Virus record (IMG/VR): IMGVR_UViG_2529292906_000010
Direction: 5' to 3' (one strand)
Origin: a virus
Taxonomy: Duplodnaviria > Heunggongvirae > Uroviricota > Caudoviricetes
DNA length: 47,757 nucleotides
The position numbers and the translations under genes are program-made. Shown piece after piece: positions 3,829 to 47,757 of the stretch (the first letter of the stretch is position 1; each line of letters begins with the position of its first letter). The notes under the pieces were generated by a model. It was not told the origin of the DNA, made no database searches, and worked only from the letters and a program-made list of their open reading frames with translations.

Positions 3829-3894
3829 TTCTATTAGACATAGAAAACTTGTCTTATACGCAATGTAGTAAATTTCTATTGCCACATAGGAAAA
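3829..3894. promoter_or_regulatory. two TTCTAT-N-ATAGAA palindromes upstream of HTH gene
   Basis: TTCTATTAGACATAGAAAA (3829-3847) and TTCTATTGCCACATAGGAAAA (3873-3894). Confidence 0.3.
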
Positions 3895-3921
3895 GATTTC
3901 CTACCATCGTAGATATAATAA

Positions 3922-4221
3922 ATGGAGATGGTTATGGATAAAGATACTGTTTTAAAAATGTTGAATCCGGCTTGTTTAAAAAAAGCGGATGAATGGGAAT
4001 CTCCTACATGTGGAGAAGTTCGGGCAGTCATTGGCCTGACCGGAATGAGCGGCTCGCAGTTGGCCAAAAAACTAGGCTTAAAAGATAGTCGCAATGTTCG
4101 CAACTGGCAGATGTTAAAGGAGTCCACATCCAGATCCAGCATTCCGTATGCAGCCTGGGCGCTGCTGTGTTACTTCGCTGGGTTAGGGTTAATCTTCATT
4201 GATAACAAAACAGATGTTTGA
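3922..4221 (+). CDS. helix-turn-helix DNA-binding protein
   Basis: 99-aa ORF; HTH-like segment GMSGSQLAKKLGLKDSRNVRNWQ; start may be ATG 3934. Confidence 0.5.
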   Translation: MEMVMDKDTVLKMLNPACLKKADEWESPTCGEVRAVIGLTGMSGSQLAKKLGLKDSRNVRNWQMLKESTSRSSIPYAAWALLCYFAGLGLIFIDNKTDV

Positions 4222-5413: not shown

Positions 5414-5441
5414 AAGCCCCTGTTGCAAAGGGGCTTTTTTG
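5414..5441 (+). terminator. rho-independent terminator
   Basis: AGCCCCT-N-AGGGGCT stem followed by TTTTTT. Confidence 0.6.
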
Positions 5442-5450
5442 TGCTCATGG

Positions 5451-5562
5451 AATTATATAATTATAGATTTATATAAAAAGTGCTTTACAGGTGGGAAAAT
5501 ATTTCCTAGTGTTATACCCGAAACCGAGCGATACCCGCCCTGGTTAAACCGGAGATAACCCG
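5451..5562 (+). promoter_or_regulatory. conserved promoter-leader element, copy A
   Basis: Near-identical to 14348-14464 and 22011-22122; contains TATAATTATA palindrome, TTTACA (-35-like), GGGAAAA(A/T)ATTTCC, conserved leader and GGAGA RBS. Confidence 0.5.
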
Positions 5563-7086: not shown

Positions 7087-8229
7087 TTATGGTCTGCTTT
7101 TCTGTGCCAGCTTATCAGCACATGTTTTTATCAGATCCTGTAGTGTCCTGGCTGGCAGGTTTGCATCCAGTACGCTGAGTATGCTGTTGTGATCTGCTTG
7201 GTCGACTACTTTGCCTGTCGGTGGTAGTAGCTTGAGCTGAGGATTCAGGTTTTCGTCAAAACTGATAAGTGCTCTGGCGTTTCTGAGCAGATCAAGAAGT
7301 AAGGCTGATATCACATCATCTTTAGTCATTGTTGGTAGATTTAGTGCCGCTTTAGTTTTCTCCGTCGCCTTGTCAAACTCTTTGATTAGTGTCTTGCGGT
7401 AGTTTGGTTCCGTTAATAGCCGATGATGTTCTGTTGCCGTTCGGATAATCTTTGTTTCCTGATACAGTCGGTTGTATAGCATTCGCTCGTATTCTGCCTT
7501 TAACACGCTGCTGATAGCGTTAAAGGCTTCAATGTAGGCCAGCTTGATATCCTTCACGCCTGGACCGTCGATACTTTCCATGAGCAAGGTAAATCCGTCT
7601 TTTGTCATGCGATAGATTGTTATTTCGCGGTCGCTTCCTTCCAGCGGTCGTTGTTCTTTAAAGAAGTGACGCGCCGCAGCCGTGCGAGGAATGCGTAACG
7701 CATCGATGGCCATAACGATGGAATTGTTTGTGGTGCTGAATGCTTGGGCAACATCGGCTGAGGTTGTGAGTGGCTCGTTGTTGCACACCTTAACGTAATA
7801 CATTGGTTTAGCGTTGAGCGTATCGACAACCTCACGAGCATTGTTTGGTGAGACGGTTACGGTCGCGGCCGTTTGCGCGTTCTGGTTGAAGTAGCAGTCT
7901 TCCAGCCGTTCGAATACATCCCATGCCTGATCGGTTTCGAGCATTTTAGCGTGACGTGCAGCCCCGCGTTCGGTCCAGAGGATGAGCTTTCTAACGTTAT
8001 TCGCGATGGTTTGAAAATCTCTTAAAGAGATTTTCAAACTTTGGAGATCTGTACCTTTTACAACTATGAAATGTTTTCCTTCTGTAAACCGGGACTTATT
8101 ACGGTGGTGATTTCTGTGAAGACATTCGACGCTACAGCCATATAGTTTGGCAAGCAGCTCCGTGGTGATAACGGGGAGCTGCTTATGCAGGATAGGCTGT
8201 AGGGTGTTAACGGTCGGAAGCGTTTTCAT
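7087..8229 (-). CDS. phage antirepressor (ORF6N/Rha-like N-terminus)
   Basis: 380 aa; N-terminal region resembles ORF6N/Rha antirepressor domains as recalled. Confidence 0.65.
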   Translation of the reverse strand: MKTLPTVNTLQPILHKQLPVITTELLAKLYGCSVECLHRNHHRNKSRFTEGKHFIVVKGTDLQSLKISLRDFQTIANNVRKLILWTERGAARHAKMLETDQAWDVFERLEDCYFNQNAQTAATVTVSPNNAREVVDTLNAKPMYYVKVCNNEPLTTSADVAQAFSTTNNSIVMAIDALRIPRTAAARHFFKEQRPLEGSDREITIYRMTKDGFTLLMESIDGPGVKDIKLAYIEAFNAISSVLKAEYERMLYNRLYQETKIIRTATEHHRLLTEPNYRKTLIKEFDKATEKTKAALNLPTMTKDDVISALLLDLLRNARALISFDENLNPQLKLLPPTGKVVDQADHNSILSVLDANLPARTLQDLIKTCADKLAQKSRP

Positions 8230-8417
8230 TTTGCACCTCCCATAACTACTTTGGTTACGAGGGAGATTTTTGCGACAGAAACAGCGTTATCGTTGCTGGC
8301 GATGCGCATAGCTTCGCGCTCGATGATTTCAGCCAGGCGGAATTTATCGGCGTATGAGGCTTTCTTGAGAAGGATCTTTACGAGGTTGACGTAATAGTCA
8401 TGGGGTAGGTTTGTCAT
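8226..8417 (-). CDS. small protein overlapping antirepressor start (Icd-like position)
   Basis: 63-aa ORF whose stop overlaps the antirepressor start; AAGGGA RBS. Confidence 0.4.
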   Translation of the reverse strand: MTNLPHDYYVNLVKILLKKASYADKFRLAEIIEREAMRIASNDNAVSVAKISLVTKVVMGGAK

Positions 8418-8582
8418 TGTGATGATTCCCTTAAAGGTTAAGGATACTCACCACCGTCAGGTTCCAATCATTGGGTGGTGAGACGTGCAGGGTTGGAACT
8501 ACCGGACACAATGACGAACCGGCGAGTCTTACGACTCCCCCGCACGCCCCACCATAATTTGGGTGTAGCAGTGCTTTACGCA

Positions 8583-8690
8583 TAAAAAAACCGCTAACGC
8601 GGTATGCGCCATTGTGTCTACGGGGTTCCAATCCCGACCGTAGATTTTGCTACGGCTCGGAAAGTGTCCACCAATGGCGCATTCATGTCA
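8583..8690 (-). ncRNA. candidate structured small RNA upstream of antirepressor operon
   Basis: Minus-strand hairpins (GCGCCATTG/CAATGGCGC; TCTACGG/CCGTAGA) ending in CCGCGTTAGCGG + T7 terminator at 8583-8605; no ORF. Confidence 0.25.
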
Positions 8691-9173
8691 ATACGGCGGG
8701 ATTTTAACAGAGACAACCACATAGCGTGGGTTTATTGGTAGGCAGAAACAAAAAAACCGCCCTATTGAGGACGGTTCTTTCGTGCTGATCGGATTCGCGG
8801 TCCTTTCAGCATTACGTTGTTGTATAAACAACCACGCAAGCACAAGCAGCAAGTTAATTTTACCCAAAAGGTAATAATAGTCCACTATTATGCTTCAAAA
8901 AATTGTGGTTCTTGTTGTGCCTGCAAACTCACAGATTGTGGGTAGGTTACTGATTTTGTGAAAATAAACGAGTTTTTTCGTTTAATTTCTTTCCTATTAC
9001 TAATCTTAAAATAATCGTAAAATACCTGTGGACCTTCCCGCCGATTCGCACCCGGGCACCGACTTTAGGGGAGGATTCTCCGTTGCCGTACATGCAAGCA
9101 CAAGCAGCCGTGCTTGCTCTCGCGTTGTTTTCGTCGGTGGGGATGCCGTGAAACGGCCTGTAAGGGCCATACA

Positions 9174-9296
9174 ATGAAAAAATACTGTATGTGTATTTTT
9201 ATCGTTGTTACTGGAGCTTTGTTTACGCCACATGGGGAGGGTTGGAAGATTACTGATAACGCTCTGAATGTGACGATAAACATTAGCAGCAAGTAG
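9174..9296 (+). CDS. small hydrophobic protein (40 aa)
   Basis: MKKYCMCIFIVVTGALFT... with AAGGG RBS; followed by terminator at 9302-9325. Confidence 0.3.
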   Translation: MKKYCMCIFIVVTGALFTPHGEGWKITDNALNVTINISSK

Positions 9297-9301
9297 CGAT
9301 T

Positions 9302-9325
9302 AGGCCCCTTCGGGGGCCTTTTTTA
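9302..9325. terminator. hairpin terminator
   Basis: AGGCCCC-TTCG-GGGGCCT followed by TTTTTT. Confidence 0.6.
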
Positions 9326-9546: not shown

Positions 9547-9795
9547 TTACTTCTGGTTGTATTGAGCCTTGAGTAACTCAAAAGATTTTGTCAGCACTTC
9601 TTTCAATGACATATCCATTGAGCTGGCGAACGTTTTGTACTCGCGTTTAAATTCAGGGTCGACGTTAAACGCCATTTGTGCCCCACCTGATTTGGTTCTG
9701 GCTGGCGTTTCAGTCGGGTCGAAAACCTGCGGTTGTTCGATCGATGGCGGTACGCCTTTGCTGTTCTTCTTTGGTGGTTTTGATGGTGCGGCCAT
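9547..9795 (-). CDS. ParG-like centromere-binding protein (probable ribbon-helix-helix)
   Basis: 82 aa; Pro/Lys-rich N-terminal tail then short structured C-terminus; directly downstream of parA; AGAGAGGA RBS. Confidence 0.5.
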   Translation of the reverse strand: MAAPSKPPKKNSKGVPPSIEQPQVFDPTETPARTKSGGAQMAFNVDPEFKREYKTFASSMDMSLKEVLTKSFELLKAQYNQK

Positions 9796-9807
9796 GTGTA
9801 TCCTCTC

Positions 9808-9840
9808 TTATATAAATCTATAAAACTATAATTATATATT
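9808..9840. repeat. TATAATTATA palindrome site D (between parA and parG-like gene)
   Basis: Core at 9827-9836; reverse complement carries ATAGTTTTATAGATTTATATAA flank as in leader copies. Confidence 0.5.
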
Positions 9841-10507
9841 ACGCGGCAGTAGTCAGAGCCTCAAGCTGGTTGATAATCCCCTGAATAACGTCGTCTGCTT
9901 TTTTGCGTGGCGCAACGTATGAGCACTCAATGAGGCTTAAGCCCTTATCCTGAGCTTTGCTCAGAGCTGGCTTGTGGGGAATGTACTTATCGACAACAAA
10001 GTATGGCGTATTAGCCAGGTACTCTTGGGCTTCAATATAGTCAGCTTCGTTTTCAGCCGCGCCGGAAAACACCATGCAAATTTTCTTGATTGGTACACCC
10101 TTTTTAACGATGCCGTGAGCTGTGTTAACGGTGGTTTCCAGGTCATCGGTAGAGAATCTGGTTGGCAAAATAACCATATCCAGAAATTCAGAGAGCTTCG
10201 GTACTGATTCAGATGCGTAGGCACCGCCATCAACGATAACCAGGTCGTATACTTCTGATTCGATGATTTTCTGGACTTGTGATGGCGTGCCGCACGGCTG
10301 CGCCGCGATTGCAGGTTCGATATTGTTGGCCATTCTGCGTTGTACCCAACGCGTTACCGTTCCGTTAAGCACATCCATATCGATCAGGCATACATTCCAG
10401 CCAGCCTTTGCATAAGCAACTGCTAAAGCACGAGCAATGGTTGATTTGGTTACGCCGCCTTTTCCGTTGAAAATACCTACAGATATAGTCATTTGTCGAG
10501 ACTCCAT
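9839..10507 (-). CDS. parA: partition ATPase ParA (ParA/MinD family, small type Ib)
   Basis: 222 aa; deviant Walker A GKGGVTKST near N-terminus. Confidence 0.85.
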   Translation of the reverse strand: MESRQMTISVGIFNGKGGVTKSTIARALAVAYAKAGWNVCLIDMDVLNGTVTRWVQRRMANNIEPAIAAQPCGTPSQVQKIIESEVYDLVIVDGGAYASESVPKLSEFLDMVILPTRFSTDDLETTVNTAHGIVKKGVPIKKICMVFSGAAENEADYIEAQEYLANTPYFVVDKYIPHKPALSKAQDKGLSLIECSYVAPRKKADDVIQGIINQLEALTTAA

Positions 10508-10512
10508 GCGTT

Positions 10513-10618
10513 TGATTATATAATTCTATAAATCTATATTTATAGAATGAGGTAAGCATAACCAACTTTTTGGCGGATGAAAAGTGTTTTATATAATTAT
10601 ATAAATCTATAATCATAT
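10513..10618. promoter_or_regulatory. par promoter/centromere-like region with two TATAATTATA-family sites
   Basis: TATAATTCTA at 10518-10527 and TATAATTATA at 10591-10600, directly upstream of parA. Confidence 0.4.
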
Positions 10619-10638
10619 AAGCGGGCGTTAGCCCGCTT
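10618..10638 (-). terminator. hairpin terminator
   Basis: GCGGGC-GTTA-GCCCGC stem after stop of gene 10643-11017. Confidence 0.45.
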
Positions 10639-11772: not shown

Positions 11773-11807
11773 TTCTCATCAATCGTGAATGGGGGGTTAT
11801 TTATACA

Positions 11808-11929
11808 TTACCACATTTAGTGGTTTTCACACGGTAAGACGAGAGGTAGACCACAAATAGAAGGTTATTTTTGTTTCCCCATTGAAAAACTCACGATTTG
11901 TGGTTTTAATACCACATATCGTGGTTTAA
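11808..11929. promoter_or_regulatory. immunity operator/promoter region (OR-like) between repressor and Cro-like gene
   Basis: Palindromes ACCACATTTAGTGGT (11810-11824) and ACCACATATCGTGGT (11911-11925) plus half-sites at 11850 and 11891; TTGAAA -35-like at 11882. Confidence 0.5.
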
Positions 11930-11943
11930 CTGGAGTTAGTTAA

Positions 11944-13916: not shown

Positions 13917-14294
13917 GTGAGACGCGATCTGGATAGCTTGTTTGAGCTATGGGCGCTGTGGGTGCGCAATGGCTGCAACGCCCGTAGCGGTTTCGCGTCG
14001 ATGTTAGAAATGATGATGGTTACGCGTTGCCAGTTTACCGGAGGGGGCGGCGCACCAAATGACTCACTGGAAACCAGTATCGAGGGAGCGGTGACGGCCC
14101 TCACGGTAGTTGATGAGACTGCGGCGCTGGTTGTCCGAATTGAATACGGGGCGTGGGAGATTCGGGGCCTCGACATAAATGCACCGCATATTGATAAAGC
14201 CCACGCCCTTTCTCTTAGTCTCAGACAGTATCGCCGGAAGCTGGCAAAAGCCAGGGCGTATGTTGTCGACTACTTGAAAAAGAGAAGAGAATGA
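13917..14294 (+). CDS. putative antitermination protein Q-like
   Basis: 125 aa; N-terminal LFELWALW motif recalled from phage Q antiterminators; GTG start with GGAGA RBS; followed by leader copy B. Confidence 0.4.
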   Translation: MRRDLDSLFELWALWVRNGCNARSGFASMLEMMMVTRCQFTGGGGAPNDSLETSIEGAVTALTVVDETAALVVRIEYGAWEIRGLDINAPHIDKAHALSLSLRQYRRKLAKARAYVVDYLKKRRE

Positions 14295-14347
14295 AAGTGT
14301 CATTTTGAGCTGTTTTGGTGATTTGTAGGCACCGGGAATATCGGAAA

Positions 14348-14464
14348 ATCTATAAATATATAATTATAGATTTATATAAAAAGTGCTTTACAGGTGGGAA
14401 AAAATTTCCTAAGGTTATACCCAAAACCGAGCGATACCCGCCCTGGTTAAACCGGAGAAATCTG
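14348..14464 (+). promoter_or_regulatory. conserved promoter-leader element, copy B
   Basis: Near-identical to copies A and C; TATAATTATA core at 14359-14368. Confidence 0.5.
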
Positions 14465-15532: not shown

Positions 15533-15566
15533 CAGTAAGTCTACGGCGGGATGTCTCCCGCTGTAT

Positions 15567-15598
15567 ATAGAATTATATATTTATATAAATGTATAAGG
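15567..15598. repeat. TATAATTATA-family site F (variant AATTATATA)
   Basis: ATAGAATTATATATTTATATAAATG immediately upstream of gene 15610. Confidence 0.4.
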
Positions 15599-20747: not shown

Positions 20748-20871
20748 TACCGCCTGTGATTGGGTAAAGCCCATCTACCTGACTGATCACGACATCGATG
20801 TTATGGACCGCCAGACAAAGAAAGATATTCTGGCTCATAACAGGGCATGGGAAATCAACTGCCGAAAGTAA
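20662..20871 (+). CDS. o-spanin (Rz1-like lipoprotein), overlapping i-spanin
   Basis: Lipobox LIASC; probable start at internal Met (20692/20698). Confidence 0.55.
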   Translation: MYSRVLTIWLMTMLIASCGSRGSVPVVVDTACDWVKPIYLTDHDIDVMDRQTKKDILAHNRAWEINCRK

Positions 20872-20912
20872 TATATATTTCTATAATTATATAAATATAT
20901 AGTTACAACATT
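20871..20912. repeat. TATAATTATA palindrome site G
   Basis: Core at 20882-20891 in AT-rich DNA after lysis cassette. Confidence 0.45.
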
Positions 20913-20946
20913 CTATGCGCTTTTCTCATGGCGCACGCATCAACCA

Positions 20947-21029
20947 TGTTTGTCTGATATGCCGCCGCGCCCAAAAATCCTGAATTTATTGGCTGGGATT
21001 TTCGTGCGCGGCGCCACACCAGACAAACA
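20947..21029. repeat. long imperfect inverted repeat upstream of tRNA
   Basis: TGTTTGTCTG...GCCGCCGCGC (20947-20970) pairs with GCGCGGCGC...CAGACAAACA (21006-21029); loop has AAAATCC/GGATTTT. Confidence 0.4.
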
Positions 21030-21423: not shown

Positions 21424-22011
21424 ATGGAGGCAATTGCATTGTTTAATCTGATTTATGCAGATCCCCCCTGGGAATACAAAGATAAGTGTAAGGATGGGAA
21501 TCGTGGAGCTGGTTTTAAGTATCCAACGATGAAAGCTGAGGATATTGCTCGTATTCCTGTCTGGCAGCTTGCTAATCCTGAATCGTGTTTGTTGGCCATG
21601 TGGTGGGTTCCGACTCAGCCAGAAGAAGCGTTGCTGGTGGTGAAAGCATGGGGATTCAGGCTTATGACCATGAAGGGCTTCACATGGAACAAATGTGGTA
21701 GCCGACAACCAGATAAGCTGGTGATGGGGATGGGGCATATGACTCGTGCAAACAGTGAAGATTGCTTGTTTGCGGTAAAAGGCAAATTGCCGACCCGCCT
21801 TGATGCGGGGATCATTCAGTCGTTTACATCGCCTCGTCTGGAGCATTCTCGGAAGCCTGATGTGGTTCGTGACAAGCTGGTAAGGCTGTTAGGTGATGTT
21901 CCTCGTATTGAGCTGTTTGCTCGCGGTGATTTACCTGATGGTTGGCATGGCTGGGGCAACCAGTGCAATGGAGGTATCCAGTTGCATGATGCTCTCTGGC
22001 AAGTGGCATAG
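21424..22011 (+). CDS. orphan N6-adenine DNA methyltransferase, MT-A70 family
   Basis: DPPW motif (IYADPPWEY) near N-terminus; no adjacent restriction endonuclease. Confidence 0.75.
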   Translation: MEAIALFNLIYADPPWEYKDKCKDGNRGAGFKYPTMKAEDIARIPVWQLANPESCLLAMWWVPTQPEEALLVVKAWGFRLMTMKGFTWNKCGSRQPDKLVMGMGHMTRANSEDCLFAVKGKLPTRLDAGIIQSFTSPRLEHSRKPDVVRDKLVRLLGDVPRIELFARGDLPDGWHGWGNQCNGGIQLHDALWQVA

Positions 22012-22122
22012 AATTATATAATTATAGATTTATATAAAAAGTGCTTTACAGGTGGGAAAAAATTTCCTAAGGTTATACCCGAAACCGAGCGATACCCGCC
22101 CTGGTTAAACCGGAGAAATCTG
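22011..22122 (+). promoter_or_regulatory. conserved promoter-leader element, copy C
   Basis: Near-identical to copies A and B; core at 22017-22026. Confidence 0.5.
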
Positions 22123-22588: not shown

Positions 22589-22610
22589 ACCGTAACGATA
22601 ACGAACAACG

Positions 22611-22637
22611 AGCCTCGGCAATTGCCGGGGCTTTTTT
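22611..22637 (+). terminator. rho-independent terminator
   Basis: CCTCGGCAA/TTGCCGGGG hairpin + TTTTTT. Confidence 0.55.
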
Positions 22638-23866: not shown

Positions 23867-23993
23867 TACTGGAAGGTGGGCGACCGCCGTCAGTTGCGAC
23901 CTGACGACAGTCATTCATACCCACAGGGTGCCGTGGATACAAACCGAGGCCCACTTGCTTGCACAAGCGAGGGGATTTTAGCGGATAAACGGC

Positions 23994-24617
23994 ATGACAA
24001 AACATCTTAATGTGGTTTCTTTACCACTTTCTGTGTTGATTGGTTATGAAAAGAACGCTCGCACACACTCCGTGGAGCAGGTAGATCAGATTATTGCCAG
24101 CATACAGGAGTACGGATGGACTAATCCGATCCTGATAGACGAGAACAACGTTGTAATTGCTGGTCATGGTCGAATTGCTGCGGCCACTCAGTTGGGGATG
24201 GATGATGTTCCCTGCATTGTTCTGGCTGGGCTAACGGAGAATCAGAAGAAGGCATATCGTCTGGCCGACAACCGTATTCCGCTGAATGCTGGTTGGGATG
24301 AAGAGTTGTTAAGCGCGGAGCTTGCAGATCTTGCGGCCGATGATTTTGCTCTGGACTCAATTGGTTTTACTCAGCGCGAACTGGATAACTTATTGAGTGC
24401 GGCGGTCTACGATGACACAGAGGGTATGGATATCCCATTTGAGAAGGATGAGGCCAAATCAGGCGTAAAAGTTCAGTACCTGTCATTTGGAGGTCATAAA
24501 ATCCCGGCAACGGATGAGGAAGCGGATCGTTTTGACTGCGCGGTGTCTCGTTATGTTGATGATAATGGCAGCTATATCGGATTTGTATCCGCATTGCTGG
24601 CTGGGGAGGTGTGCTGA
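23994..24617 (+). CDS. ParB/Srx-like nuclease-domain protein
   Basis: 207 aa; IAGHGRIAA box; paralogue of 27284-27874. Confidence 0.6.
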   Translation: MTKHLNVVSLPLSVLIGYEKNARTHSVEQVDQIIASIQEYGWTNPILIDENNVVIAGHGRIAAATQLGMDDVPCIVLAGLTENQKKAYRLADNRIPLNAGWDEELLSAELADLAADDFALDSIGFTQRELDNLLSAAVYDDTEGMDIPFEKDEAKSGVKVQYLSFGGHKIPATDEEADRFDCAVSRYVDDNGSYIGFVSALLAGEVC

Positions 24618-25990
24618 TGCTTCACCTCAATTACGACATAACGCACCTACGCGGCGCGGAATATAACCCGCGTTTTATCGGTGAGGATGATCTTGCGAGG
24701 CTGGCGGAAAGCGTCAGGGAGCTGGGGCTTGTGAAGCCATTGATAGTGCGCGGCGATTTGCTGGTGGCGGGACACCAAAGGACGAAGGCGCTACGTAAGT
24801 TGGGAATAACGCGTGCTGCGGTGTATGTGTTGCCCTGTGAAACGACGGTATACGACGAAGTACGGTTTAACCAACTGCATAACGGAACGGATTTTGATAG
24901 CGGAGATGAGCGTTGCAGGGTGTCCGGTCTGGAAGATAAGCATGGTTTTGTTCAGGTATCGGCAAGCCAGATCTCAGGCAATATGCGCGCGAAAATGGCA
25001 TATGTTCGAAAGAACATAGCGGAACTGGTTATCAAGTATGGTCCGTGGGGTGGTTGTGTTGCTACTCAGTCTGGTGAGGTTATTCACTGTGCTCAGTATG
25101 CATTAGCAGCGAAAATGACGCGCACACCGCTAACGGTGTTTGTGATCCCTGATGTTGAGAAGGAAAAATACCAAAGTTATCTGAATAAAACTTATGGTGT
25201 ATTTGAGTATTCTCATCTGGAGAAAACAACATACATCCAGACGTATGCGCAGCTTATGCGGTTGCGTAATGGTGGCAGCCTGAAATCAAATCTGTATGAG
25301 TCGTTGATCCTCCCGATCGTTGCCAAGACGCCAAGAGGAATTGATTTTGGTTCGGGGCAGGGAGACTACGCGCGAATGCTCAGGGCAAAGGGATATAACC
25401 TGCATGATCTTGAGCTTTTTCGCCGTAAGGGCGCTGGAAACACTCTGGATAGGGCTGCAACAAACCGAATGATTGATACGCTGGTGGACGACTTAAAAAC
25501 GCGAGGGCGTTACGACTACGTGATTTGCGATAGCGTTTTGAACTCGGTCGATAGTGTCGAGGCTGAATGGTCCGTTCTGACGGTTCTGAAAGGCCTGTGT
25601 AAAGCTGGTGGGTCAATATTCTTTTCTGGTCGTAGCCGTGGAGAGCTGGAAACAGTCCTGAAGCAAACACAAGCGGCGAGTTCCAAAAGCCGGCTTTATT
25701 TTATTGATCATAACGGTTTTACCGCGTTGTACCGGAAGGGGCACTGGTTTTACCAGAAGTTTCACTCTGATGATGAAGTGAAGCAGTTGTGTCGTGTACA
25801 TGGTTTCAGGATTAAGCGGTCAATATTCAACTGTAAGAGCTGGTATTTGCACGTCATTAACGATGATTCCCTTAGTTGGGCGAGTCTGGAGAAAGCTGTT
25901 CGTTTTGAGTTTGAGTTGCCGTTGCCTGGTGGTTCAACAATCGGACGATCTGATGATGTGCTGGCGGCTTTCCGGCCGTTGATTAAGTAG
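24611..25990 (+). CDS. ParB/Srx-like N-terminal domain fused to class I SAM-dependent methyltransferase domain
   Basis: 459 aa; VAGHQRTKA box; motif I GIDFGSGQGDYARML; no DPPY/NPPY motif. Confidence 0.6.
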   Translation: MLMLHLNYDITHLRGAEYNPRFIGEDDLARLAESVRELGLVKPLIVRGDLLVAGHQRTKALRKLGITRAAVYVLPCETTVYDEVRFNQLHNGTDFDSGDERCRVSGLEDKHGFVQVSASQISGNMRAKMAYVRKNIAELVIKYGPWGGCVATQSGEVIHCAQYALAAKMTRTPLTVFVIPDVEKEKYQSYLNKTYGVFEYSHLEKTTYIQTYAQLMRLRNGGSLKSNLYESLILPIVAKTPRGIDFGSGQGDYARMLRAKGYNLHDLELFRRKGAGNTLDRAATNRMIDTLVDDLKTRGRYDYVICDSVLNSVDSVEAEWSVLTVLKGLCKAGGSIFFSGRSRGELETVLKQTQAASSKSRLYFIDHNGFTALYRKGHWFYQKFHSDDEVKQLCRVHGFRIKRSIFNCKSWYLHVINDDSLSWASLEKAVRFEFELPLPGGSTIGRSDDVLAAFRPLIK

Positions 25991-26006
25991 TGTGTAGGAG
26001 GCGCTG

Positions 26007-26726
26007 GTGGCTGACAGAATTGAGATAAAGATGGATTTTTCTTCTCAGGATATTCAACGACAACTCCAGCGCCTTGAAGAACGCGAATTGCCGTTCGCAA
26101 TGGCGCTTGCGGCAACCAGAACGGCAAAGGCTTCTCAGGCTGCGATTAAGAATGAAATTAATCGGGTATTTGACAGGCCCACGCCGTGGATTCAGAACTC
26201 TACTTACGTTTTGGCCGCAAAGAAGAGTGATCCTACAGCCATTGTGTATGCTCGTGAATGGGGAGGAACGCCAGCCCCTGTAACGTTGACTCCGCAAATT
26301 GAAGGTGGCCAACGACAGTACAAACGCTCAGAAGGGGCGCTAAGGGCTGGTGGATATTTGCCTAACGGCTGGCAGCTTGCTCCTGGTCCCGGCGCAAAGC
26401 TGGACAAATACGGGAATATTTCGCGGGGGCAATTACAGAAGGTCTTATCTGGCCTAAGAGTTCAGCGAGATGCGCATCAAAATCGCCGTCAGGGCAAGCC
26501 TACGGAGTTTTTTGTTGTTCGACCTGGTACAGGTAACCCGCTTCAACCAGGCGTCTGGCAGCGCGTTGGGCGGCGTCCTACGTTGATCCTTACGTTTATC
26601 CAGCAACCTAACTATTCACAGCGTCTTGATTGGCATGGCGTGGCGCTGCGTGCTGGTGAGGATGCGTTTGCTGATGAAGTCACAAAGGCTATTGATGACA
26701 TTCTTTCTAAGACCTTCTCTCGTTAA
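26007..26726 (+). CDS. hypothetical protein
   Basis: 239-aa ORF with GTG start. Confidence 0.5.
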   Translation: MADRIEIKMDFSSQDIQRQLQRLEERELPFAMALAATRTAKASQAAIKNEINRVFDRPTPWIQNSTYVLAAKKSDPTAIVYAREWGGTPAPVTLTPQIEGGQRQYKRSEGALRAGGYLPNGWQLAPGPGAKLDKYGNISRGQLQKVLSGLRVQRDAHQNRRQGKPTEFFVVRPGTGNPLQPGVWQRVGRRPTLILTFIQQPNYSQRLDWHGVALRAGEDAFADEVTKAIDDILSKTFSR

Positions 26727-38578: not shown

Positions 38579-41370
38579 ATGGCCAGCAATAAGAACTTTA
38601 AGCTGGCTTTTGAAATTGGCGGCAAAGTTGCCGCCTCTCTCCCCAAAAGTTTTACTACAGCTAATCAGGCTGTTGCTAAATTAAATGCCGAGCTTGCTGG
38701 ATTAACGAAAGAACATGGGGAAATTCAAAAGCTACAATCTGTAAAAGTAAAGGTTGGACAGACTGCCCTCGAATATCATAAAGCTGCCGCTCGCGTTGAA
38801 GAGTTACAGAAGCAAATAAAAAACACGGCCAATCCAACCAGAGCGATGCTTCGTGACTTTGAGAAGGCAAAAACACATTCATCGAATTTACGAGCATCAC
38901 TACGTTCTCAGCGTGAAGAACTGGCCGCTTTAAAGTCTGCCTATCAGGGAGCTGATACATCTGCCAGAGCTTTGGCCTCAAGAGAGAAAGAGCTTAAAGC
39001 CAGCATTGATCGTAATCGTGAGGCTCAGGCCCGTAGCGTTGAGCAGGTTAACCGCTACAGAACGGCTTTGGCTTTAGCCAGAGCAAATGTTCAGCAAGTG
39101 AAAAACAGCAGGAGGAACTTAACCGGGCATTAGAAAAACAACGTATTGATAAAATTAACAGCTATAAAAATGCGTTGGCTGAAGCACGGAAAAATGTTCT
39201 TGCAGTAAAACGTGCTCAGGAGGAGTTAAACCGCGCGTTGGAAAGGCAGCGTGAATTGAAGCGAGAGCATCTTGGTGAGGCAAAGAGTCAACTTGTAAGG
39301 ACAGGATTACAAACTGGTGCTGTAGCGGCTGGTGCATTTGCTGCTGCTAATAATGCAGCAAATTTTAATCGTGAAAACAAAATGATTGGTCTTACGGCAG
39401 ATATGAAGCCGGAGGAAGTTCAGGCGATGGGGCAAGCGATGCTTGTTACCGGGGCGGCTACCAACCAGTTTGCATCTGATATTCAGGCCGCTCAGGGTTT
39501 TCTTGTCGCTGCTGGGCAGGATTATAAAGAGGCTCAGGCGAATCTACTAACTATTGGGCGAACAGCTACAGCTACTGGCTCTGATATCCTCGATGTCTCG
39601 AAAGCATCATTTACATTAAGTGACTCATTGAAGATTGATCCATCTCAAATGAAGTCTGCAATGGGGATTCTGGTTCAGGCAGGGAAAGAGGGAAACTTTG
39701 AATTTAAAGATATGGCCAAAAATCTTCCTGTGCTTGGTGCTCAGTTCCAGGCATTAAAAATGGGAGGTAAAGAAGCCGCCGCGACGATGGGGGCAGCTTT
39801 GCAGATAGCTCGCAAAGGTGCTGCAACTTCGGATGAGGCTGCTAATAATATGAACAACTTTTTGGCGAAAATACTTTCCCCTGAAACACTAAAAAAAGCA
39901 AAGAAAAATTTCGGTGTAGATTTATATAAAATTGTCACAGCAGCGCAGAAAAAAGGGAAGAATCCATTCGAAGCTGCAATGCATTCTGTCATGAAAATGA
40001 CTAAGAACGGAGATCAGAAGTTACTTGGTGAGCTATTTGGCGATATGCAGGTTCAGAACTTTGTTCGTCCGATGATTCAAAACTGGAAGGAATACCAGAG
40101 AATCAAAGCAACATCTCTTGGAGCTGGAAGTGCTGTTATTGACCGCGATTTTGCCAACATAACGAAAGATAATGCGGAGCGATTGAAACAATTACGTATT
40201 CAGGCTAGCAATGCATCATTAAGTTTTGGTCAGGCCTTGCAACCTGCTTTAAATGCCGCGCTTAGTGTTTTGGTTCCGCTGATTACAAAAATCAGTGAAT
40301 TTGTAGCTAACAACCCCAATTTTGTTTCTCAGATTGTGATGGCGGCAGGTGCGTTTCTAACCATGAAAAGTGTGGTTATAGCGTGTAGGGTAGCTATGCT
40401 GGCTTTATCTGTAGCGACAAAGCTAACCCCTTTCGGGTGGATTCAGATGGCCATATCAGCCATTGTGGCGTTAGGTATATTGTTGTATCAGAATTGGGAT
40501 AAAATAAAAGAATGTGCATCAAAAGTTTGGCCTGCTATTAAGGATTACACTGTTAAGTCTTTTGAGACTATAAAAAACTTTATCTTAAACTTTGATCTCA
40601 ATGGATGGATTATATCTATGTTTGGTAAAGCATGGTATTATCTTTCCAACATAAACTGGAGTTCGGCAGGAGTAAGAATTTACAGTGCATTAATTAGTGC
40701 TTTTAAATGGATGTCTCCGCTTCCGTTCTTAATTAAAGCATTTAAACTTACAACAAATTACCTTTCTGGCATTAACTGGAGCGAAACAGGAAAGAAAATC
40801 ATAGATACACTGGTGTCTGTTTTTATGCGTTTTTCGCCAGTTGGACTATTTATAAGAGCATTCCAATCTGTAACGGCTTATTTATCTGGAATAAACTGGA
40901 GTGAGTCAGGTGCAAAAATAATTGAGACGTTAATCACTGGGATAAAATCAAAAGCAAATGCTTTAATTAATGAAGTGAAAGGCGTTTTTTCTTCTGTACG
41001 TGAGTATTTACCGTTCTCTGACGCGAAAAAAGGTCCATTCTCACAGCTAACAAAGTCAGGTGGTGCAATAATGACTACTCTGGCATCAGGTGTTAGCAGG
41101 AATAACAGCTTACAGAATGCAATAGCAACCAAGTTCGGGCAATCAAATTTATCACCTCACGGGATATCTGCCGCCGGGACTTCTGGACCTCGCCAGAACG
41201 TTAACGCTGTGACTGGTGGAATAACCTATTCACCTGTAATCAATCTTCCGGCTGGTTCACCAAAGGAAACTGAGGCGGCAGCTAAAAGAGCATTAGATGC
41301 GGGATATTCTGATTTTGAGAAGAAATTGAGTGCTCATATGTTCCAACAACGGAGATTAAGTTTTGGATGA
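38579..41370 (+). CDS. tail tape measure protein; frame interrupted in A5 run at 39101-39105
   Basis: Coiled-coil N-terminus continues across the apparent stop at 39131 in the -1 frame; C-terminal TM and GINWSE repeats. Confidence 0.8.
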
Positions 41371-45701: not shown

Positions 45702-47735
45702 GTGAGTAAATTATTATTTACGATGACTGACGCCGGGCGTCAGGAGTTGGTTAATGCCAACAAAACAGGAACAAATAAAGTTGAGATTGTTTCTGTTGGT
45801 TTAGGTGGTAGATATTATGTCACGTCAACCTCACAAACAAATATAACAAACGAAATAAAACGACTTACCACAATAGGTGGCAAAGTTGTTTCCCCTGATA
45901 CAATTCATGTAACGGCGAAGGATGATAGTAAAGATGAGTATGTTGTCCATACAATAGGATTGTATACAAATAAGGGAACGTTGTTTGCTGTATACTCGCA
46001 AGAACAAGCAATAATAAATAAAGCATCATCTACTATTGCTTTAATATCAAGTGACATAGCAATCAAGACTCTTGATACTAAAAATATTATATTTGGTGAT
46101 GTTGAGTTTATTAATCCTCCCGCGACCGAAACTGTTGTTGGGGTTGCAAGATTTGCTAATGAACAAGAAATTGATGCAGGTACAGATGATTCCCTTGCTG
46201 TTTCAGCAAAGCGGCTTAAGCAAGCCATTGTGAAACATGAGCAATCACGTAATCATCCTGATGCAACTTTAACCTCAAAAGGCTTTGTTCAACTTAGCAG
46301 CGCCACCAATAGCACGTCTGAAACGCTTGCTGCGACGCCTAAGGCTGTTAAGGCAGCATATGACCTGGCTAACGCTAAATACACCGCACAGGACGCTACC
46401 ACTGCGCGGAAAGGGATAGTTCAGCTCAGTAGCGCCACCAACAGCACGTCTGAAACGCTTGCGGCAACGCCAAAGGCTGTTAAGGCGGCATATGACCTGG
46501 CTAATGGCAAATACACCGCACAGGACGCTACCACTGCGCGGAAAGGGATAGTTCAGCTCAGTAGCGCCACCAACAGCACATCTGAAACGCTGGCTGCGAC
46601 GCCAAAAGCTGTTAAGGCGGTAATGGATGAAACGAACAAGAAAGCGCCCTTAAACAGTCCTGCGCTGACCGGAACGCCAACAACGCCAACTGCGCCAAAA
46701 GGGACTAATAATACTCAGATCGCAAGCACGGCTTATGTGATGGCCGCGATTGCCGCACTTGTAGACTCGTCGCCTGACGCACTGAATACGTTGAACGAGT
46801 TAGCGGCGGCGCTGGGAAACGACCCGAATTTTGCGACCACCATGACTAAAGCGCTTGCGGGTAAGCAACCGAAAGATGCCACTCTGACGGCGCTGGCCGG
46901 GCTTGCTACTGCGGCAGACAAGTTTCCGTATTTTACGGGGAATGATGTCGCCAGCCTGGCAACCCTGACAAAAGTCGGGCGGGATATTCTTGCGAAATCG
47001 ACCGTTGCCGCTGTTATCGAATACCTCGGTTTACGAGAACTCGGCACAAGCGGGGAAAAAATACCGTTACTCAGTACGGCGAATACCTGGACCAATCGAC
47101 AAACATTCAGTGGTGGCCTTTCTGGGGAACTGTCCGGCAATGCCGCTACTGCAACAAAGCTGAAAACAGCACGAAAAATTGCTGGAGTTGGTTTTGATGG
47201 TTCTAGCGATATTTCAATTAGTGCCAAAAATGTCAATGCATTTGCACTCCGACAAACAGGTAATACTGTTAATGGTGATACATCCGTTGGATGGAATTGG
47301 GATAGTGGTGCATATAACGCCATAATTGGTGGTGCAACTGCATTAATTCTTCACTTTAATATAAATGCTGGTAGCTGTCCTGCCGTACAATTCCGTGTGA
47401 ATTATAAAAATGGTGGCATTTCCTACAGGTCGGCTCGTGATGGTTATGGGTTTGAATTAGGTTGGTCAGATTTCTATACCACGACACGAAAACCTTCAGC
47501 AGGAGATGTTGGTGCATATACACAGGCAGAATGTAACTCAAGGTTTATTACAGGTATTCGCCTTGGCGGTCTGTCATCTGTTCAGACATGGAATGGTCCC
47601 GGCTGGTCTGACAGGTCAGGTTATGTCGTTACGGGTTCAGTTAACGGGAACCGTGATGAATTAATTGATACAACGCAGGCAAGGCCAATTCAGTATTGCA
47701 TTAATGGAAGGTGGTATAACGCGGGGAGTATTTAA
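45702..47735 (+). CDS. tail fibre protein (constant N-terminal part plus invertible C-terminal cassette from ~47040)
   Basis: 677 aa; three tandem ~44-aa fibre repeats; C-terminal 232 aa identical to the inverted cassette 791-1486. Confidence 0.9.
   Translation: MSKLLFTMTDAGRQELVNANKTGTNKVEIVSVGLGGRYYVTSTSQTNITNEIKRLTTIGGKVVSPDTIHVTAKDDSKDEYVVHTIGLYTNKGTLFAVYSQEQAIINKASSTIALISSDIAIKTLDTKNIIFGDVEFINPPATETVVGVARFANEQEIDAGTDDSLAVSAKRLKQAIVKHEQSRNHPDATLTSKGFVQLSSATNSTSETLAATPKAVKAAYDLANAKYTAQDATTARKGIVQLSSATNSTSETLAATPKAVKAAYDLANGKYTAQDATTARKGIVQLSSATNSTSETLAATPKAVKAVMDETNKKAPLNSPALTGTPTTPTAPKGTNNTQIASTAYVMAAIAALVDSSPDALNTLNELAAALGNDPNFATTMTKALAGKQPKDATLTALAGLATAADKFPYFTGNDVASLATLTKVGRDILAKSTVAAVIEYLGLRELGTSGEKIPLLSTANTWTNRQTFSGGLSGELSGNAATATKLKTARKIAGVGFDGSSDISISAKNVNAFALRQTGNTVNGDTSVGWNWDSGAYNAIIGGATALILHFNINAGSCPAVQFRVNYKNGGISYRSARDGYGFELGWSDFYTTTRKPSAGDVGAYTQAECNSRFITGIRLGGLSSVQTWNGPGWSDRSGYVVTGSVNGNRDELIDTTQARPIQYCINGRWYNAGSI
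46281..46620 (+). repeat. tandem 132-bp repeats within tail fibre gene (~2.6 copies)
   Basis: GGGATAGTTCAGCTCAGTAGCGCCACCAACAGCAC... recurs at 46413 and 46545. Confidence 0.7.
47014..47039. other. DNA invertase crossover site (gix/hix-like) inside tail fibre gene
   Basis: Reverse complement TTCTCGTAAACCGAGGTATTCGATAA; inverted-repeat identity with 769-1500 begins at 47026. Confidence 0.6.
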
Positions 47736-47737
47736 TT

Positions 47738-47757
47738 ATGATGCACTTAAAAAACAT
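47738..47757 (+). CDS. tail fibre assembly protein, first 6 codons (3' end outside window)
   Basis: ATGATGCACTTAAAAAAC identical to the start of the inverted Tfa at 788. Confidence 0.5.

Follow-up and report, generated by a model that had tools for sequence, protein, structure and literature searches.

The window analysed here, a 47,757-nt stretch of tailed-phage DNA, contains three near-identical promoter-leader elements that are very probably sigma-70 promoter cassettes of the KorC-regulon type, with a KorC homologue as their proposed repressor and with relatives in the klcA, kleA and kleC regions of IncP-1 plasmids. The kind of element is known and the setting is new: plasmid-type global control heads phage operons. 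No paper linking KorC regulons to phage-plasmids turned up in the literature collection searched. Each copy is built from three modules, namely an array of the 8-bp motif TATAKAWW, a sigma-70 promoter with a palindrome in its spacer, and a leader of ~42 nt.

The window (47.7 kb) is a myovirus-type phage-plasmid, complete or almost so. It is ~99% identical to the ~48-kb plasmid of Escherichia coli ATCC 25922 and 98% identical to the Yersinia phages vB_YpM_39/41/44. Its gene content covers RepA, ParA and its small partner, a HigB/HigA-like toxin-antitoxin pair, a CI-like repressor, genes for lysis, a virion module of myovirus type and a tail-fibre segment that can invert.

The copies lie at 5451-5562, 14348-14464 and 22011-22122, are ~112 bp long and share 97-99% identity. 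Their positions and near-identity had been reported in the initial annotation and are borne out by alignment and BLAST. Copies 2 and 3 are 99.1% identical over 111 bp and copies 1 and 3 are 97.2% identical over 106 bp; almost all columns of the three-way alignment are identical from the TATA-rich part to the ATG, and a repeat search of the window groups the three into one family. A repeat this long and this identical cannot have arisen by chance. The genes behind the copies, all on the plus strand, are as unrelated as had been claimed: they start at ATG 5563 (126 aa, without a Pfam family), ATG 14465 (DUF3560) and ATG 22123 (98 aa).

The promoter anatomy described below also supports the earlier view of the copies as promoter-leader units heading separate operons. 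Copy 1 precedes the gene for the 126-aa protein and a small XRE-family regulator. Copy 2 precedes DUF3560 and then a gene matching a PHROG annotated as a MarR-family regulator, in the direction of the lysis genes. Copy 3 is followed by two small ORFs up to a strong intrinsic terminator ~490 nt 3' of it (22610-22633, plus strand; 10-bp stem with 7 GC pairs, T-run), beyond which come the ParB/Srx-methylase and virion genes. Copy 3 could drive the virion genes only if transcription reads through this terminator. Its location ahead of the ParB/Srx and virion genes makes one ask whether antitermination or another late promoter is at work. On the upstream side, the initial annotation had placed two copies after terminators, and this holds for copy 1 only: the intrinsic terminator of the HigB/HigA-like toxin-antitoxin operon lies directly 5' of it (5414-5436, plus strand; 8-bp stem, then TTTTGT). 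A search upstream of copy 2 for a terminator-like hairpin with a T-run found none, and copy 3 begins at the stop codon of the MT-A70 methylase gene.

The sigma-70 promoter of the copies consists of a -35 element TTTACA, a 17-bp spacer and a -10 element TAnnGT. Within the spacer is a 17-bp palindrome, T(A/G)GGAAA-N3-TTTCCTA, which overlaps the -10 by two bases, its terminal TA doubling as the initial TA of that element. All three cores are on the plus strand. The core of copy 1 (5484-5512) has its -35 at 5484-5489, the KorC-type operator TGGGAAAATATTTCCTA at 5492-5508 and the -10 TAGTGT at 5507-5512. Copies 2 and 3 share the operator TGGGAAAAAATTTCCTA and the -10 TAAGGT; in copy 2 (14387-14415) the -35, operator and -10 are at 14387-14392, 14395-14411 and 14410-14415, and in copy 3 (22045-22073) at 22045-22050, 22053-22069 and 22068-22073. 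Transcription from copy 3 is predicted to start at about 22080-22082. Among 22 distinct relatives, variation in the -10 is confined to the middle three bases and never touches the T, A and last T, the pattern expected of a working -10. The E. coli copies have TGGG in one arm of the operator; the Salmonella copies are perfect palindromes. The initial annotation had also suggested a regulator binding site, on the strength of the conserved leader. Such a site exists, but the clearest one is this palindrome in the promoter spacer, outside the transcribed leader.

The operator motif has 10 matches on both strands of the window against 0.94 expected, and operator sites are found at exactly four places in the 47.7 kb: the three copies and a fourth promoter heading a korC-like gene. 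The main phage repressor CI was considered as the binder and rejected, since the CI/early-promoter region (11800-11930) uses a different palindrome, ACCAC-N5-GTGGT. At least two such palindromes, with half-sites, lie in that region and are probable CI operators, unrelated to the KorC and TATA sites.

The fourth promoter (3879-3907, plus strand) has a -35 TTGCCA at 3879-3884, a perfect operator TAGGAAAAGATTTCCTA at 3887-3903 and a -10 TACCAT at 3902-3907. Its layout is that of the copies, but it has neither a TATA array nor the shared leader. The gene it transcribes (3922-4221, plus strand) encodes 99 aa from ATG 3922, with ATG 3934 (95 aa) as the likelier start. By tblastn its product is 52% identical to the annotated KorC repressor of the IncP-1 plasmid pA1 and has relatives on about 3,900 plasmids. 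A 52%-identical relative occupies the korC position of a klcA-klcB-korC locus on an IncP-1-like contig, and the helix-turn-helix of the protein resembles the DNA-binding domains of AcrIF24 and Aca3. A KorC-type repressor is therefore encoded on the same replicon as the cassettes. The operator is found in the promoter transcribing the korC homologue in five of the five genomes compared. The same arrangement, at sequence level that of an autoregulated gene, recurs in Salmonella, Enterobacter, Klebsiella, Vibrio and IncP-1 relatives.

The whole cassette aligns with the kleA and klcA promoter regions of pA1 and with the klcA promoter of the IncP-1-like contig, base for base over promoter, palindrome and leader. 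Window and IncP-1 cassettes have in common AAAGTGCTT(G/T)ACAGG on the 5' side of the operator, a TAGG-N9-CCTA palindrome of 17 bp that finishes with the TA of the -10, and, on the 3' side, a hairpin in the leader, then ACCGGAGAA and the ATG. At the same place, the klcA and kleA promoters of pA1 and the IncP-1-like contig carry TAGG(G/A)CATT(T/A)TGCCCTA, which likewise finishes with the TA of the -10, and the geometry of the four sites in the window matches that in pA1 and L049. Judged by sequence, then, the three elements are homologues of a known class, the KorC-operator promoter cassettes, and are related by descent to the klcA/kleA/kleC regions.

The likeness to IncP-1 plasmids (RK2/RP4, pA1) extends to organisation. 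In both, several near-identical promoter regions per replicon each head a separate operon (the klcA and kleA promoter regions of pA1 are near-identical repeats of each other), the leader ends in ACCGGAGAA-N-ATG, common by descent, and the replicon encodes a small helix-turn-helix repressor, KorC, whose own promoter bears its operator. In RP4, KorC regulates the klcA, kleA and kleC promoter regions (PMC12365149). Steady-state expression of RP4 klcA is strongly repressed by KorA and KorC, and it rises ~120-fold (RT-qPCR) when the plasmid enters a new cell (PMC7314908). In pOXA-48 a KorC site is predicted between the -35 and -10, and autoregulation is predicted from it (PMC12365149). The KorC of IncU plasmid RA3 and its homologue on IncL plasmid pOXA-48 similarly show one small repressor coordinating backbone modules through palindromic promoter operators (PMC7414963, PMC12365149); those replicons are conjugative plasmids, however, and their promoters are not near-identical cassettes with a common leader.

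There are also differences from IncP-1. The operator half-site is TAGG(G/A)CA with an 18-bp spacer there and TAGGAAA with a 17-bp spacer in the window. The KorA (GTTTAGCTAAAC) and KorB (TTTAGCSGCTAAA) operators of IncP-1 are replaced in the window by the 8-bp TATA arrays; in pA1 they are visible 5' of the -35, where the window carries its arrays. The korC gene lies within the klcA operon in IncP-1 and has its own promoter in the window. Finally, the window replicon is a tailed phage-plasmid, and in place of kle and klc genes its operons hold phage genes, from DUF3560 to lysis and at the start of the virion region. KorA (OA) and KorB (OB) motifs occur in the window at chance level and none is near the copies, so that co-regulation of the IncP-1 type is not apparent. 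One site, TTTAGCGGATAAA at 23977-23989, is a single mismatch from the IncP-1 KorB operator consensus, a single match that is within chance (1.5 expected); it lies 5 nt 5' of the ParB/Srx-domain gene at 23994-24617.

A more distant comparison came from a Vibrio campbellii phage-plasmid (NZ_CP050481), reached through a 39%-identical homologue of the 126-aa protein. It carries four tandem KorC-type cassettes at 24500-26400, each with one small gene; among these genes are the korC homologue (33% identity) and the counterpart of the gene for the 126-aa protein. Identity to the window is just 22-39% for cassette-linked and backbone proteins. The Vibrio cassettes have 8-bp units TAAAGAAW in the array positions, a 17-bp palindrome TAGGAC-N5-GTCCTA overlapping the -10, and a leader with a GGCC...GGCC hairpin and AAACCGAGG; the -35 is TTGTCA, compared with TTGACA in IncP-1 and TTTACA here. 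The Vibrio relative thus confirms the cassette architecture, even though its operator, repeat unit and hairpin all differ in sequence. Its parA promoter (20860-20990) has the same operator as its cassettes, whereas the E. coli parA promoter is without a KorC operator. Distant relatives were also sought through the DUF3560 protein; the matches listed among genome contigs were all unrelated Clostridia loci, and viral contigs gave just near-identical relatives.

Across these genomes the operator half-site is uniform inside each genome and different between genomes: TAGGAAA in E. coli and Salmonella, TAGGAC-N5 in Vibrio and TAGG(G/A)CA in IncP-1. This co-variation of operator and korC is the strongest computational evidence for the KorC homologue as the putative binder.

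Alternatively, the copies could be late promoters of the phage as in P1, with the palindrome as a site for an Lpa-like late activator. P1 is likewise a phage-plasmid in which one regulator acts through a short conserved site at many dispersed promoters (C1 operators, Lpa late promoters), its late promoters also have an inverted repeat between the -35 and -10 positions, and the window has a P1-like immI region (C4 RNA, a1/b1 targets, antirepressor); moreover, copies 2 and 3 precede lysis and virion genes. The sites themselves do not correspond, however. P1 has the 9-bp inverted repeat AAGTGACTT, 4 bp and TAnnnT, without a -35, whereas the copies have a good -35 and a different 17-bp palindrome overlapping the -10, and comparison with six annotated P1 late promoters found no similarity. 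Site sequences, site positions and regulator families are unrelated between the two systems. None of the ~28 window ORFs compared with the families of Pfam, PHROGs or NCBIfam fell into one annotated as a late-promoter activator, and the palindrome is directly homologous to KorC operators. We consider a P1-type late function extremely improbable.

Under the KorC reading, RNA polymerase would use the TTTACA, 17-bp spacer and TAnnGT of the cassettes, and a dimer of the 3922-4221 protein would bind the palindrome. Because the palindrome fills the spacer and overlaps the first two -10 bases, a bound dimer would be expected to block the promoter. The KorC homologue, whose gene is transcribed from a promoter with that operator, would set its own level and keep all four promoters in a low basal state. 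We infer that in the carried plasmid state the cassettes and the korC promoter would be held low in this way, and that where KorC is absent or titrated, for example on DNA just injected or transferred into a naive cell, all cassettes would fire together.

The leader is as conserved as the promoter, and the initial annotation had read this as a sign of a functional RNA element. Leaders span 5522-5562 in copy 1, 14425-14464 in copy 2 and 22083-22122 in copy 3, all on the plus strand. In each, a two-tier hairpin begins 2-3 nt from the predicted start of the transcript, and AAACCGGAG and then the ATG come after it. The hairpins lie at 5522-5545, 14425-14448 and 22083-22106 (in copy 3, outer AACC/GGUU and inner GCG/CGC), and the Shine-Dalgarno GGAG at 5551-5554, 14454-14457 and 22112-22115. 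On 22 distinct aligned leaders, 83.8% of cells pair, against 41-47% with the partner slid by one column; at three of the nine pairs both partners have changed, and covariation scores higher than in any of 500 shuffles. This covariation amounts to a few clade-level events, and RNAalifold retains the outer stem alone. The E. coli, pA1 (IncP-1) and Vibrio leaders take the same architecture when folding starts at their predicted 5' ends, with z-scores of -2.0 to -2.8. The hairpin is maintained through sequence change in four lineages, and distant metagenome KorC-type promoters tend to have a hairpin of unrelated sequence just 3' of the -10.

These observations could be taken to mean that the leader itself is a cis-acting RNA (a riboswitch, a nut/put-like antitermination signal or a translational operator) co-regulating the three operons, a reading to which a weak second hairpin occluding the Shine-Dalgarno site, some compensatory change in the first and the terminator downstream of copy 3 would lend themselves. 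Other observations speak against it. Rfam 15 covariance models gave no match to the three copies at the gathering score or at E<=1, although they matched ryfA, C4, isrK and a tRNA elsewhere in the window. Folding energies are modestly better than those of shuffles, and structure prediction, while it does find the hairpin near the 5' end, gives z-scores of just -0.8 to -2.8. Complementarity to the leader across the whole window is limited to chance-level 9-11-mers, with none in the C4/isrK/ryfA region. The fourth KorC-operator promoter is without the leader, and the IncP-1 kle and klc regions share the leader yet are regulated at the operator. A short 5' hairpin with a ribosome-binding site suffices for the conserved features. 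Co-regulation through the leader RNA is accordingly quite improbable; there is no sign of a riboswitch or of an RNA acting in antitermination, and the element does not constitute a new RNA class. An RNA-level role of the hairpin in mRNA stability or translation is plausible. Stem-loops at the 5' terminus shield E. coli transcripts from 5'-end-dependent degradation, and for this reason our tentative choice for its likeliest role is to stabilise the mRNA and provide a fixed, efficient ribosome-binding site, thereby setting translation efficiency.

The KorC reading accounts for the conservation of the leader: the entire cassette, leader included, descends from the IncP-1 kle/klc regions and is homogenised within the genome. 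About 62-74 related plasmids of Escherichia, Salmonella and Klebsiella carry the triplet at matching positions, as do three Yersinia phages. In the Salmonella relative the copies are ~90% identical to those of E. coli, and all three carry common lineage-specific substitutions, which indicates that the three evolve in concert. Some of these substitutions are at sites without evident function, for example in the discriminator region, and these point to gene conversion. The neighbouring 126-aa protein is just 65% identical between E. coli and Salmonella, so the non-coding element is more constrained than its neighbour. The near-identity of the copies is probably due to shared regulators together with gene conversion: the copies would stay alike through answering to the same proteins and through conversion among themselves. 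A 32-kb short relative was considered as a product of recombination between copies and rejected, as its deletion end-points are elsewhere.

A truncated cassette was found on an IncX-like cfr plasmid, NZ_CP037908, where positions 1444-1498 are 100% identical to the upstream half (TATA array, -35 and start of the operator). It is cut within the operator by IS26 and adjoins the same toxin-antitoxin and ParA/ribbon-helix-helix modules. Its presence there indicates that the cassette moves between conjugative plasmids and phage-plasmids.

This truncated copy beside IS26, and the substitutions shared even at sites that look non-functional, are also what one would expect if the copies were neutral repeats, that is, recent duplications or footprints of a mobile cassette kept identical by recombination alone and without a common regulatory role. 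Such an origin is highly improbable in view of the synteny of the copies in Salmonella and in more than 60 plasmids, their conservation above that of the flanking coding sequence, the persistence of the architecture in Vibrio at 22-39% protein identity, and the cognate regulator encoded on the same replicon.

The TATA arrays of the cassettes belong to a wider set. The motif TATAKAWW has 31 matches in the window against 0.02 expected, and arrays are found at exactly eight sites: the three copies and five others, three of these in the parA operon. In copy 1 the array has 3-4 units 5' of the -35 (5446-5477); in copy 2 it has 4-5 units and is partly palindromic (14339-14380); in copy 3 it starts in the last codons of the MT-A70 methylase gene (22007-22038). 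In the par operon, one array lies between parA and the gene for a ribbon-helix-helix protein (9807-9840) and two flank the parA promoter (10515-10548 and 10588-10621, within 10515-10621). The remaining two are without a KorC-type promoter, one after the DUF3560 gene and 5' of the gene matching the MarR-family PHROG (15564-15597), the other between the lysis genes and the tRNA (20870-20903). The arrays are syntenic in Salmonella and are also found at the par operon of the unrelated IncX-like conjugative plasmid with the same ParA/small-protein pair; Vibrio has this par layout too, built from its own repeat unit.

The ParA-family partition ATPase is encoded at 9839-10507 on the minus strand (by annotation, with Pfam CbiA/ParA on orthologues), and 3' of parA, at 9547-9795 on the same strand, is the gene for an 82-aa ParG/omega-like protein proposed to bind the arrays. 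The family of this protein (~80 aa) includes the Vibrio and IncX partners. Its AF2 model has residues 1-40 disordered and then a strand-helix-helix with pLDDT ~90. Top Foldseek matches of the model are nearly all ribbon-helix-helix proteins, with target-normalised TM of 0.65-0.87 but E>0.6, and the best PDB matches of its profile, SvtR (E 0.14) and ParG (E 0.27), are both weak. Two features are those of a type Ib system: after a small ParA comes a small ribbon-helix-helix protein whose N-terminal tail is flexible and basic, and short-repeat arrays are at the par promoter, on both sides of it and between the par genes.

Partition proteins of type Ib, such as ParG (TP228) and omega (pSM19035), double as transcriptional regulators. 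KorB of IncP-1 is functionally also both a partition protein and a regulator, with a ParB-family helix-turn-helix rather than a ribbon-helix-helix. The window resembles ParG and omega systems in having a small ribbon-helix-helix protein after ParA and 7-8-bp repeat arrays at par and other promoters, with the difference that the sequence similarity of the 82-aa protein to ParG is sub-threshold and array binding is so far a proposal. The proposed parallel with KorB is that this partition protein of IncP-1 also represses the kle/klc promoters, at which it has operators (TTTAGCGGCTAAA 5' of pA1 klcA and kleA). On balance we favour the 82-aa protein as the binder of the TATA arrays, acting on operators and perhaps also as a centromere-binding protein. 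Binding of the arrays by ParA's partner would probably add a second layer of control, tying the promoters to the partition system.

It is conceivable, if rather doubtful, that the KorC repressor and the ParA partner jointly gate the phage operons (the one towards lysis and the one at the head of the virion genes), with the eight arrays serving both as operators and as centromere sites. If this were true, partition and copy state would directly control a burst of phage-gene expression on cell entry and silence when the element is carried.

Phage-plasmids have to reconcile two lifestyles, and how their maintenance circuits are coupled to the phage programme is little known. The proposed circuit is concrete and testable, with a single small repressor acting at four operators and a partition protein at eight arrays. 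Its carrier, the plasmid of the reference strain E. coli ATCC 25922, is common and easily handled. The long direct repeats in these genomes, otherwise puzzling, are explained as cassettes, and a kle/klc-type cassette, known from conjugative plasmids of broad host range, is shown to move between such plasmids and phages, with changed specificity in the distant Vibrio phage-plasmid.

Other features of the genome were noted. The P1-like immI module occupies 7087-8669 on the minus strand and comprises isrK and c4-a1b1 target matches (8584-8669), the C4 antisense RNA (8471-8559), an icd-like ORF of 63 aa (8226-8417) and an ORF6N/Rha-type antirepressor (7087-8229). The element thereby has a KorC regulon alongside a CI switch of lambda type and an antirepressor circuit like that of P1. 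A strong ryfA RNA match (9028-9324, plus strand; 142 bits, E 1e-36) lies between the immI module and the par operon, and this locus may be type I toxin-antitoxin-like. The last gene of the early operon, immediately 5' of copy 2 (13917-14294), encodes 125 aa; the product weakly matches the NCBIfam family PA0613 (E 2.5e-4) and is 32% identical to its Vibrio counterpart.

The genome is circular and the window wraps round it. A 744-bp perfect inverted repeat (769-1512 and 47014-47757) holds alternative tail-fibre C-termini and adjoins a Cin/Gin-type invertase at 1577-2131, so that host range is set by a segment that can be inverted, as it is in P1 and Mu. The tail-fibre gene contains 132-bp tandem repeats (46278-46673), and the tape-measure gene contains repeats with a 120-bp period (40638-40919).
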